Below are positions 21,078 to 24,654 of a DNA stretch of 29,037 bases, in pieces (positions within the stretch are counted from its first letter, which is position 1; the number at the start of each line of letters is the position of its first letter). Below the pieces are notes generated by a model that saw nothing but the letters and a program-made list of their open reading frames with translations, was not told the DNA's origin and ran no database searches. The position numbers were made by a program, and so were the translations under genes. The stretch is from UHGV virus genome UHGV-0149439. One strand, given 5' to 3'. This stretch comes from a virus.

Positions 21078-22592
21078 ATGGGCATTTTTGACAGAGCACT
21101 TGGCGCCATTGCGCCAGGGTGGGCGGTTGCGCGTGCGCGAAACAGAATGCTGCTGCAGGCGTATGAAGCCGCGCAGCCGTCGCGCCTTCATAAAGGAAAG
21201 CGGGAAAGCCGTTCTGCGGATACGGCTGTCTTTGCCGCTGGTGTGTCGCTGCGTGAGCAGGCAAGGGCGCTGGATGAAGATCACGACATCGTCATTGGTC
21301 TGCTGGACAAACTGGAAGAGCGGGTAATCGGTGCGCAGGGGATTCAGGTGGAGCCGCAGCCGCTGGGGCTGGATGGCAAGCTGCATGAAGATTTTGCGGC
21401 CAGGATATCCGCGCTCTGGTCCGAATGGTCGGTGCGCCCGGAGGTGACAGGCATGTTCACGCGACCGGAAGCCGAGCGGCTGGCCCTGCGCTCCGCGCTG
21501 CGTGACGGTGAAATTTTTACCCAGCTGGTGCGCGGGCCGGTAGCAGGGTTGACCCATTCAACCAGTGTGCCGTTTTCGCTTGAACTTCTTGAAGCCGATT
21601 TTGTACCGATGAATCTCAACAGCGTCGCCGGGCAGCAGGTGCGGCAGGGCATTATCGTCAATGCCTGGGGCAGGCCGACGGGATACCGCGTCTATAAATA
21701 TCACCCGGCGAACATGGCCCGTTTCAGCGCAGAGCTTAAAACCGTTTCGGCAGAAAACATGCTGCATCTTGCGCAGCGGCGACGCCTGCACCAGTTGCGC
21801 GGCGTCAGCCTGTTGCACGGCGTGATTAAACGTCTGAGCGATATCAAGGACTACGAAGAGAGCGAACGTGTGGCCGCCCGCATCGCTGCTGCGCTGGGCT
21901 TTTATATCAAACGCGGGGATGCGGCCAGTTTTCCAGTGGATGACGACTGGAAAGGTCCAGAGAAAAAATACCGTCATTTCGATATCGCGCCGGGCATGAT
22001 TTTTGACGATCTGGCGCCGGGTGAAGATCTCGGGATGGTTGAGTCAAACCGCCCGAACGTTCATCTCCATGAATTCCGCAACGGTCAGCTGCGTGCCGTC
22101 GCCGCTGGCAGCCGGGGCACCTATTCCAGCATTGCCCGTGACTATAACGGCACTTACAGCGCCCAGCGGCAGGAACTGGTGGAGGGGCAGGAAGGTTACA
22201 ACGTCCTGCAGCAGTGGTTTGTCGGTCAGCACAGTCGCCCAGTATATCGCGCCTGGCTGGCGATGGCGCTGCTCACGATGGATATCCCGTCAGACGTGGA
22301 CCGCCAGACGCTGTTCAACGCAACCTATCTCGGTCCGGTGATGCCGTGGATCGACCCGGTGAAAGAGGCCAACGCCTGGAAGGGGATTGTCCGTGGCGGC
22401 GCGGGAACCGAAGCAGAATGGATACGTGCCCGTGGTCAGTCTCCCCAGGAGGTCAAACGCCAGCGAATGCGCGAAACCGAATTTAACCGTAAACACGGGC
22501 TGGTGTTTGATTCAGATGCCGCCAACGACAAAGGAGCTATGCCTGATGCAACCGCAAAACAAACCGGGCAGCCGCCGGAAGATGATGATTAA
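21078..22592 (+). CDS. Portal protein, lambda gpB-like (504 aa)
   Basis: Size and position after terminase/gpW; acidic C-terminus. Confidence 0.8.
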   Translation: MGIFDRALGAIAPGWAVARARNRMLLQAYEAAQPSRLHKGKRESRSADTAVFAAGVSLREQARALDEDHDIVIGLLDKLEERVIGAQGIQVEPQPLGLDGKLHEDFAARISALWSEWSVRPEVTGMFTRPEAERLALRSALRDGEIFTQLVRGPVAGLTHSTSVPFSLELLEADFVPMNLNSVAGQQVRQGIIVNAWGRPTGYRVYKYHPANMARFSAELKTVSAENMLHLAQRRRLHQLRGVSLLHGVIKRLSDIKDYEESERVAARIAAALGFYIKRGDAASFPVDDDWKGPEKKYRHFDIAPGMIFDDLAPGEDLGMVESNRPNVHLHEFRNGQLRAVAAGSRGTYSSIARDYNGTYSAQRQELVEGQEGYNVLQQWFVGQHSRPVYRAWLAMALLTMDIPSDVDRQTLFNATYLGPVMPWIDPVKEANAWKGIVRGGAGTEAEWIRARGQSPQEVKRQRMRETEFNRKHGLVFDSDAANDKGAMPDATAKQTGQPPEDDD

Positions 22593-24654
22593 CCCCCGCG
22601 CCAGCCTGGCGGGCGTTGATGCCGCAAATGGCCAGTGCTGGTATGAGATCCGCGCGCTGGCCGCCGGGCGCGTGGAGATTTTCCTTTATGACGTGATCGG
22701 CGGCTGGGGGATCACCGCCCAGCAGTTTGTCACGGACTGTAAGGAGGCCGGTGTTTTCGACGCCAGCGCAGTGGATTTGCATATTCACAGTCCCGGCGGC
22801 GATGTGATGCAGGGGTTTGCGATCTATAACACCCTGGCGCGGCTGAAAGCGAAAGTGGATATCTGGGTGGACGGTGTGGCGGCCAGTATGGCTTCGATGA
22901 TTGTCTGTTTGCCTGGCGCCACGGTGCATATGCCGGAAAACGCCTGGCTTATGGTGCATAAACCGTGGGGTGGTATCGCCGGGGATTCTGACGATATGCG
23001 GGATTATGCCGACTGGCTGGATCGTAATGAAGCGCTGATGCTCAGTGCCTACATGAACAAGACCGGGCTTGGACAGGAAGAGCTGGAAGCAATGCTGAAA
23101 GCTGAAACCTGGCTCAACGGCGCTGAAGCGGTGGAAAAAGGCTTCGCCGACACGCTTGAACCTGAACTGCAGGCTGCGGCCTGCGTGAATGAAAATAAAC
23201 TGAAGGATTACCAGAATATGCCTGAACAGATTAAGACCCTTTTTACGCCGCGTGCCGAAGCCCCGGTGAATCAGCCGCCTGCTCCGGTTCAGCAGCCCGC
23301 ACCAGTGCAGGCAACCCAGACCCAGCCGGCACCACAACAGCCCGCGCCGCAGATGACAAACATCGATATCACCGCGCTGGCTCAGCAACTACAGCAGCAG
23401 ATGCAGACGGTGAACGCGGAACGCGTGAATACGGTTTCCGCTGTCTTTGAGGCGTTCCCGACCTTCGCGACGCTGAAGGCTGAATGCCTTGCCGACTTTT
23501 CCTGCACGGCTGAAAAAGCCCGTGACAAACTGTTGCAGGCGCTTGCCGCAGGGACAACCCCGAGTGCGGGCCCGGGCGCCATTCATCTTTATGCCGGTAA
23601 CGGCAATCTTGTCGGTGATTCCATCCGTGCTGCGGTAATGAACCGCGCAGGCTATGCGCAGGCTGAAAAGGATAACGCTTATAACGGTTATACCCTGCGT
23701 GAGCTGGCGCGCGCCTCGCTGGTGGATCGCGGCATTGGTATTTCAGGTGCCGGTACAGCGCAGGCGATGGTCGGGCTGGCGTTCACCCACAGCAGCAGCG
23801 ATTTCGGCAATATCCTGATGGATGTGGCGCACAAGGCTGCACTGCTGGGCTGGGATGAGGCCAGCGAGACATTTGAACAGTGGACCCGTAAAGGCACGCT
23901 GACCGATTTCAAAACCGCGCACCGCGTCGGTCTGGAATCACTTGCATCGCTGCGTAAGGTTCGCGCCGGGGCGGAATATAAATATGTCACCATTAAAGAT
24001 CGCGGTGAGCCGATTGCACTGGCCACCTATGGTGAGCTTTTCAGCATTGACCGCCAGACTATCATCAACGACGACCTGGATATGCTGACGCGTATCCCGC
24101 AGGCAATGGGGCTTGCCGCGCGTGCCACCGTGGGCGATCTGGTGTGGGCGGTGCTGACCAGCAACCCGAAAATGTCGGACGGCAAGCCGTTGTTCCACGC
24201 CGATCACGGCAACCTGGTGGCGGCTGATCTGAGTATCGAAGGGCTGGATACTGCGCGTAAAGCGATGCTGCTACAAAAATCCGGCGATCGCCGTCTGAAC
24301 ATTCGTCCTGCCTACATGCTGACGCCAGTGGCAATTGAGTCCCGGGCTAACCAGCTGATTAAATCCGCAAGTGTACCGGGCGCGGACGCGAACAGCGGTA
24401 TCGTTAACCCGATCCAGAACTTTGTGACAGTGGCCTCTGAGGCCCGCCTGGATGACAGCAGCCAGACGGATTATTACCTGACCGCTGCGCAGGGGCGCGA
24501 CACTATCGAAGTTGCTTATCTGGACGGTGTTGATACGCCATATCTGGAGCAGCAGCAGGGCTTCACCGTGGACGGTGCCGCATTCAAGGTGCGCATCGAT
24601 GCGGGGGTGGCGCCGCTTGACTGGCGCGGCATGGTTAAAGTCACCAAAAAATAA
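22582..24654 (+). CDS. Fused prohead protease (ClpP/S49-like) - scaffold linker - HK97-fold major capsid protein (690 aa)
   Basis: N-terminal IHSPGGDV-type serine protease block; Pro/Gln/Ala-rich linker (PAPVQQPAPVQATQTQPAPQQPAPQ); capsid-like C-terminal about 330 aa; ATG 22582 overlaps the portal stop. Confidence 0.8.
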   Translation: MMINPRASLAGVDAANGQCWYEIRALAAGRVEIFLYDVIGGWGITAQQFVTDCKEAGVFDASAVDLHIHSPGGDVMQGFAIYNTLARLKAKVDIWVDGVAASMASMIVCLPGATVHMPENAWLMVHKPWGGIAGDSDDMRDYADWLDRNEALMLSAYMNKTGLGQEELEAMLKAETWLNGAEAVEKGFADTLEPELQAAACVNENKLKDYQNMPEQIKTLFTPRAEAPVNQPPAPVQQPAPVQATQTQPAPQQPAPQMTNIDITALAQQLQQQMQTVNAERVNTVSAVFEAFPTFATLKAECLADFSCTAEKARDKLLQALAAGTTPSAGPGAIHLYAGNGNLVGDSIRAAVMNRAGYAQAEKDNAYNGYTLRELARASLVDRGIGISGAGTAQAMVGLAFTHSSSDFGNILMDVAHKAALLGWDEASETFEQWTRKGTLTDFKTAHRVGLESLASLRKVRAGAEYKYVTIKDRGEPIALATYGELFSIDRQTIINDDLDMLTRIPQAMGLAARATVGDLVWAVLTSNPKMSDGKPLFHADHGNLVAADLSIEGLDTARKAMLLQKSGDRRLNIRPAYMLTPVAIESRANQLIKSASVPGADANSGIVNPIQNFVTVASEARLDDSSQTDYYLTAAQGRDTIEVAYLDGVDTPYLEQQQGFTVDGAAFKVRIDAGVAPLDWRGMVKVTKK

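Follow-up and report, generated by a model that had tools for sequence, protein, structure and literature searches.

The window analysed here, that is the whole stretch of 29,037 nucleotides (nt) of the virus genome UHGV-0149439, carries in its head module a single gene that joins a prohead protease, a scaffold-like segment and a major capsid protein. The reading frame of this gene, on the plus strand, is open from 22387 to the stop at 24654 without any internal stop and, counted from the ATG at 22582, as all residue numbers below are, it encodes exactly 690 amino acids (aa) with a mass of 74.3 kDa (22582..24654). The initial annotation had read this open reading frame (ORF) as a fusion of protease, scaffold-like linker and capsid, and both the read-out of the frame and Pfam confirm that all three blocks are present. 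Indeed, searches with hidden Markov models (HMMs) recover CLP_protease, Phage_capsid_4 and the NCBIfam model NF045540, which is curated for exactly this architecture (ClpP-like prohead protease/major capsid protein fusion, Gifsy-2 type), at 926.3 bits against a cutoff of 475. Residues 31-688 align with positions 2-651 of the 652 positions of this model, that is over its full length, and the match to PHROG 133 covers the full length of the fusion protein. The gene is a genuine and intact tripartite fusion of the Gifsy-2 type, in which protease, scaffold-like segment and major capsid protein form one polypeptide. The explanation that best accounts for the locus as a whole, to which we give a probability of roughly 0.93, is that of a Gifsy-2-type tripartite head-assembly gene in an intact-looking prophage of lambdoid layout with a contractile tail, related to Citrobacter phage Chris1. 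The domain assignments draw on family HMMs, tblastn searches, 34 genomic loci and a profile match to the Protein Data Bank.

The N-terminal part of the protein holds a ClpP-related head-maturation protease domain, residues 32-191 (22675..23154, plus strand). The model NF045542 (head maturation protease, ClpP-related), whose cutoff is 120 bits, matches here with 194, the Pfam domain CLP_protease spans residues 63-191 with an E-value of 9.5e-29, and phmmer against solved structures returns ClpP matches down to E 3e-16. The predicted catalytic nucleophile is Ser102 (codon AGT, 22885..22887, plus strand), in a motif AASMAS that aligns with AASMA of ClpP, and the predicted catalytic histidine is His126 (codon CAT, 22957..22959, plus strand), in a motif MVHKP that aligns with M-I-H-Q-P of ClpP. 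Both residues are invariant across 18 homologues, in which Glu175, at the position of the ClpP Asp, is nearly invariant. On these matches the domain is classed as a ClpP-related serine protease with predicted Ser/His catalysis. It had been described as ClpP/S49-like; the ClpP half of this label stands, whereas the S49 half (SppA/lambda gpC type) falls, given that the SppA model TIGR00706, with a cutoff of 155, scores only 18 bits and that a match to lambda gpC has a probability of just 11.6% in hhalign (E 0.0026). An S78-type fusion (NF045541) was rejected as well, since that model reaches 373 bits, below its cutoff of 525, with a match confined to residues 235-687, and no match to Peptidase_S78 was found.

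The protease and capsid domains are separated by a flexible linker rich in Pro, Gln and Ala, residues 222-258 (23245..23355, plus strand), with the sequence TPRAEAPVNQPPAPVQQPAPVQATQTQPAPQQPAPQM and with 11 Pro and 9 Gln in 37 residues. Its richest 30-residue window, from residue 228, is 63% Pro and Gln, compared with 10% over the whole protein, and both its sequence and its length are poorly conserved among homologues. The linker is followed by a conserved scaffold-like segment, residues 259-333 (23356..23580, plus strand), a block with invariant R281 and L298 that presumably takes the role of the HK97 delta domain; the same region is given a scaffold role in the MD8 paper (PMC8508860). The remainder, residues 334-690 (23581..24651, plus strand, 38.5 kDa), is the major capsid protein domain, with Pfam Phage_capsid_4 covering a core of residues 379-687 (E 7e-50). 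While the search of solved structures with the single sequence returned ClpP only, capsid structures were reached with a profile built from the capsid domains of 15 relatives, which matches solved capsid proteins of the Mu gpT type (8rkc/8rkx, E 2.9e-14, and 9jod). Judged by these profiles, the C-terminal domain is classed as an HK97-type major capsid protein.

Upstream, the gene overlaps the 3' end of a portal protein gene of the lambda gpB family (21078..22592, plus strand; Pfam Phage_portal_2, E 4.8e-87; TIGR01539, 421 bits against a cutoff of 173). The start of the fusion gene had been described as coupled to the portal stop. The overlap itself is there, given that ATG 22582 overlaps the portal stop TAA at 22590-22592 by 11 nt, in the sequence ...GAAGATGATGATTAA, but as the actual start this ATG is probably not correct, because no Shine-Dalgarno (SD) sequence lies at a usable distance from it. 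A SD sequence, AAAGGAG (22530..22536, plus strand), is instead found inside the portal coding sequence, 9 nt before the ATG at 22546, and it is kept in relatives; indeed, a pair of AAGGAG or AGGAG and ATG equivalent to 22530-22548 occurs in all close relatives. The codon equivalent to 22582 encodes Leu in a Pantoea homologue (L019), which means that only the upstream start remains there. Phages MD8 and Pmp14 are annotated with comparably longer N-termini. The conserved pair of SD and ATG, the lack of SD before ATG 22582 and the Leu in Pantoea together favour ATG 22546, 36 nt upstream, as what is probably the real start. The most probable full-length gene would then be 22546..24654 (plus strand), overlapping the portal gene by 47 nt and encoding a polyprotein of 702 aa and 75.7 kDa. 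In the records of Chris1 and of E. coli PS2 the gene begins at the downstream ATG, which probably leaves it 11-13 codons too short.

A further candidate initiation site lies within the gene. Every in-frame ATG, GTG and TTG of the ORF was scanned for a SD sequence 4-12 nt upstream, and the single match in the whole ORF is Met213, ATG 23218, which falls exactly at the boundary of the protease domain and the Pro/Gln linker. The SD-like sequence AAGGA (23203..23207, plus strand), with a conserved AGGA core, precedes this ATG by 10 nt, and initiation there would give a nested in-frame product of 478 aa and 51.3 kDa (23218..24654, plus strand), consisting of scaffold and capsid without the protease. 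Among 31 relatives of the ClpP type the Met is kept in 30, and 29 of these 30 also have a SD-like motif, while 11 other conserved Met columns show 0-5 such motifs each and the background is 5% of codons. The conservation extends to the codons themselves, since codon -5 encodes K, Q or E and yet is always NAG (AAG, CAG or GAG), followed by GAN, which leaves the bases A-G-G-A fixed. All 14 representatives with less than 75% identity have G at the synonymous third position of codon -5, although AAA and GAA are the preferred synonyms in most of these genes, and the product of the gene-specific frequencies of G-ending synonyms is about 10^-4.7, a value for which independence is only approximate, the sequences being related. 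In the same 14 representatives the 45-nt stretch around the ATG is among the least structured of the gene (mean 92nd percentile), and in the window the local guanine-cytosine (GC) content around ATG 23218 is 0.33, against 0.575-0.597 in two 1-kb windows that contain it.

An equivalent SD and ATG are present at the same boundary in two distant loci of the ClpP type (L036 and L037) and, with different peptide sequences, in the S78-type fusions of RcMamaDuck, Stenotrophomonas S1, Ralstonia YO375_1 and Synechococcus MinM1. Gifsy-2 also carries an internal SD and ATG (GAGGAG, 9 nt). In Faecalibacterium phage FP_Epona (L050 1396-3532), a 176-aa S78 protease gene is followed after 13 nt by a free-standing 530-aa scaffold-capsid gene with an AGGAGG SD, which shows this capsid family in a two-gene arrangement, either ancestral or alternative. 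Residue 47 of this scaffold-capsid protein aligns to Met213 and the alignment runs on to the C-terminus, meaning that in an unfused relative the unit from Met213 to the end forms an independent gene. It is on balance probable, from these sequence comparisons, that the gene yields two products, a low-abundance full-length form and a more abundant 478-aa scaffold-capsid form started at 23218. Two other interpretations of the internal codons were rejected. Met259 (in QMTNID) as the nested start has no SD and is not conserved, being absent from Chris1. Met213 as the homologue of the lambda Nu3 start was set aside because the similarity to gpC is weak and limited to the protease core (11.6%), inside which the Nu3 start falls, so that the relationship is one of analogy.

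The alternative is that only the full-length polyprotein is made and that a protease is attached to every capsid subunit. On this view the AGGA...ATG at 23203-23220 would represent a relic of an ancestral gene boundary, a conserved peptide motif ([KQE][DE][FY]xxMP) serving cleavage or docking, or a SD-like ribosome pause for the folding of the protease. This possibility has a substantial share of the probability, though a minority one, and several observations weigh on its side and against a nested product. No nested coding sequence is listed in any of the eight annotated fusion-gene records inspected, and the internal site is missing in some fused relatives, given that L021 has the ATG without the SD and L032, L034, L039, L046, L047 and L049 have neither; an internal start is thus not obligatory for the fusion architecture. 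The residues at codons -5 (K/Q/E) and -4 (D/E) are chemically alike, as a constraint on the protein would give, and the motif could be conserved for protein reasons. The internal SD, AAGGA with a spacing of 10 nt, is only moderate for a protein needed in hundreds of copies, and processing, stoichiometry and internal initiation are all read from sequence. A constraint on the peptide does not sit easily, however, with the G found at the third base of codon -5 in every one of the diverged lineages against the usual codon preference, or with the unrelated S78-type fusions that have SD and ATG at the same boundary in different peptides. No other part of the gene is as rich in AT or as poor in structure as this boundary, and a relic would not last to 50% protein identity without selection. 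The literature searched on internal starts in protease-capsid fusions contained nothing relevant, Effantin et al. 2010 lying outside that search, and the MD8 paper (PMC8508860) leaves an internal start unmentioned.

Two further explanations concern the gene as a whole. The fusion could be an artefact in which separate protease and scaffold-capsid genes were merged by a sequencing or assembly error, through a lost stop or a shifted frame. Unfused relatives such as FP_Epona do exist, and errors do hit the fusion gene, as the frameshifted copies of Pseudomonas phage PAN70 and Citrobacter murliniae indicate. Nevertheless, errors in the relatives split the ORF and never create it. A scan with one genome per species gave 28 near-full-length homologues, 27 of which, from independent genome assemblies, are one uninterrupted ORF; the sole break found in checking these homologous prophages is the frameshifted C. 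murliniae copy (L028). Named phages with identities as low as about 50% likewise keep the frame, described from the outset as continuous, without interruption; in tblastn, 80% or more of the query is covered by at least 79 phage records, and the dedicated curated HMM is matched end to end. The conservation of the single ORF excludes a lost-stop artefact, to which we assign next to no probability. The gene could, alternatively, be intact but lie in a defective, non-inducible prophage remnant, without current function. The window ends within the tail module (baseplate V, 26632-27249), so that tail completeness cannot be judged, and no att sites were defined. On the other hand, all the modules examined are present and open (integrase, CI, CII-like protein, replication, Q, holins, endolysin, spanin, terminase subunits, portal, fusion, cement and connectors) and the layout is collinear with the phage record of Chris1, which makes a remnant improbable. 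The two broken copies among the relatives, L028 1501-3553 (Citrobacter murliniae CP163158) and L052 (PAN70, with an annotated homopolymer deletion), are likely sequencing errors or decaying prophages.

The relatives of the fusion protein are retrieved by tblastn as one continuous piece each, at 90% identity in Citrobacter phage Chris1, 69% in Hafnia phage yong2 and about 55% in the Pseudomonas F10/MD8/JBD68/LES group. Among genomes, the nearest copies lie in prophages of Enterobacter genomosp. O (96%) and Scandinavium lactucae (95%). Together with Chris1 (ON041214) these form a group with fusion proteins 90-96% identical to that of the window and a collinear order of head and tail genes, the differences being minor substitutions only, mostly in the linker. 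The product is labelled merely 'prophage Clp protease-like protein' in the Chris1 record, while RefSeq names the E. coli prophage copies 'ClpP-like prohead protease/major capsid protein fusion protein', the name of NF045540. The capsid part alone retrieves Gifsy-2, mEp460, mEp043, mEp213, CP-1639, Stx2a-converting phages and Pasteurella Pmp14, and more distantly Rhodobacter and Stenotrophomonas phages annotated 'major capsid and protease fusion protein'. In the archaeal Methanoculleus virus Blf4 (L051 2309-3496), a capsid protein of the Phage_capsid_4 lineage, unfused and 395 aa long, is labelled 'prophage Clp protease-like protein', a label evidently carried over from fused bacterial homologues.

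The architecture of protease, scaffold and capsid in one gene is already known from Salmonella phage Gifsy-2, Pseudomonas phage MD8 and many other phages; possible novelty is limited to the conserved site of internal initiation. For Gifsy-2, Effantin et al. 2010 reportedly described a gene in which a ClpP-like protease and a capsid protein flank a central domain, about 200 residues long and possibly scaffolding, and which yields a T=7 capsid. The Gifsy-2 gene (STM1034.3n.Gifsy2, NC_010393) resembles the present one in having the ClpP-like protease, the scaffold-like region and the capsid in one ORF of about 690-700 aa, with 51% identity over residues 20-688, a lambda-type portal upstream and a DUF2190 cement protein downstream. 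It differs in the linker sequence and in belonging to a phage with a lambda-like non-contractile tail, whereas the window contains a contractile-tail module (baseplate V). This 'tripartite capsid gene' of Effantin et al. (Virology 402:355) is cited in PMC8538268 and PMC12315714. For MD8, gp5 has been described as protease, scaffold and capsid protein from a single gene (PMC8508860); the proteins of MD8 and of the F10/JBD68/LESphi group, whose identity of about 55% extends over the full length, stand in a siphovirus background. Analogous fusions have been reported in Arthrobacter phages (PMC5513430).

The lambda C/Nu3 genes resemble the present gene in their position after a portal gene of the lambda family and in the tethering of protease to scaffold, and the proposed nested in-frame start would follow the same regulatory logic. 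In lambda, however, the protease is of the S49 type, the Nu3 start lies within the protease-homologous region and not at a domain boundary, and the capsid protein E is encoded by a separate gene. HK97 gp4/gp5 and the S78-type fusions of NF045541 (for example those of Rhodobacter phage RcMamaDuck and Stenotrophomonas phage S1) share a scaffold function N-terminal to the capsid domain, and the members of NF045541 have a homologous linker-scaffold-capsid part, which in the window matches model positions 174-631; the protease of these systems has the unrelated S78 fold and not that of ClpP.

In the 69-nt gap that separates the fusion gene from the cement gene, two terminator-like hairpins with T-runs follow directly 3' of the stop (24657-24674 and 24685-24704, plus strand), and a rho-independent terminator is annotated at the same place in the mEp460 record. 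These tandem hairpins may act in partial termination, enriching the capsid mRNA. The next gene (24724..25059, plus strand) encodes a capsid cement or decoration protein of 111 aa (DUF2190/Phage_cement_2; PF09956, E 1.4e-23; PHROG 122, head decoration), which is 39% identical to the product of the gene downstream of the Gifsy-2 fusion. The head module thus runs in the order terminase, gpW-like protein, lambda-type portal, fusion gene, cement protein and head-tail joining protein, and the succession of portal, fusion and DUF2190 is also found in Chris1, an E. coli prophage, Gifsy-2, MD8, mEp460 and Pmp14. The contractile-tail module is represented in the window by baseplate V, and in Chris1 also by sheath and tube.

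The window as a whole is a prophage of lambdoid layout. Its gene order begins with an integrase (1657-2832, minus strand) and a CI-like repressor (4877-5569, minus strand), after which come a CII-like protein, an O-like replication protein, two DNA methyltransferases, Ant and an HNH-family protein. The Q antiterminator (12554-13264) is followed by two holins, an endolysin, a spanin and small morons, and the order continues from TerS and TerL through the gpW-like protein, portal, fusion and cement to an FII-like protein, a neck protein and baseplate V. The region from the lysis cassette to the small terminase gene contains two apparent morons, one encoding a protein with a TonB C-terminal domain (16740-17075, E 1.9e-13) and the other a homologue of the periplasmic vertebrate-lysozyme inhibitor Ivy (17205-17627, E 1.3e-19). 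In lambdoid phages the interval between Q and the holins is the place where a moron or toxin gene classically sits, and here it holds a 283-aa ORF (13428-14279) in an island with a GC content of about 0.40-0.43, against about 0.55 in the flanks. This ORF has no PHROG or PADLOC match, and DUF5677 is found only below threshold. Another stretch of low GC content, at 3001-4800 between the integrase and CI (0.37 in 3001-4000), carries unassigned ORFs on the minus strand, one of 183 aa (3063-3614) with only a weak PADLOC match to PbeC (E 2e-4) and one at 4420-4725.

A course of head assembly can be proposed from the family, from what is known of lambda, HK97 and Gifsy-2 and, as regards two products, from sequence conservation. 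Translation from 22546, within the last part of the portal gene, would give the full-length, protease-bearing form of 702 aa in low amount, and the scaffold-capsid form from the SD and ATG at 23218 would be more abundant. With these two starts the ratio of protease to capsid would be low, and only a minority of subunits would bring a protease, as in lambda C/Nu3 and in herpesvirus UL26/UL26.5. The capsid domains would form a procapsid that is built up on the portal and encloses their N-terminal parts. There the tethered Ser/His protease would then trim away the protease and scaffold segments, and the mature shell protein that remains would have about 38 kDa and an N-terminus predicted near residues 320-340. 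The shell would expand upon DNA packaging and be stabilised by the downstream DUF2190 cement protein. The same logic of a low ratio has been described for the protease-scaffold genes of herpesviruses (PMC11565193).

As a fusion, the gene was correctly recognised, and it belongs to a catalogued type that prophages of enterobacteria and of Pseudomonas commonly carry. For annotation, the product name should be protease/major capsid fusion and not 'Clp protease', and the start should probably be moved to 22546. If the internal start is real, it would provide a simple and testable answer to the stoichiometry problem of an enzyme fused to a shell protein present in 415 copies, and would show how phages of this kind keep hundreds of proteases out of every procapsid. 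More tentatively, and with rather less likelihood than for this gene itself, the tripartite genes as a class, of both the ClpP and the S78 type, may be nested two-product genes whose bulk product is a protease-free scaffold-capsid protein, in which case the nested-gene logic of lambda C/Nu3 and of herpesvirus UL26/UL26.5 would extend to the whole tripartite class.

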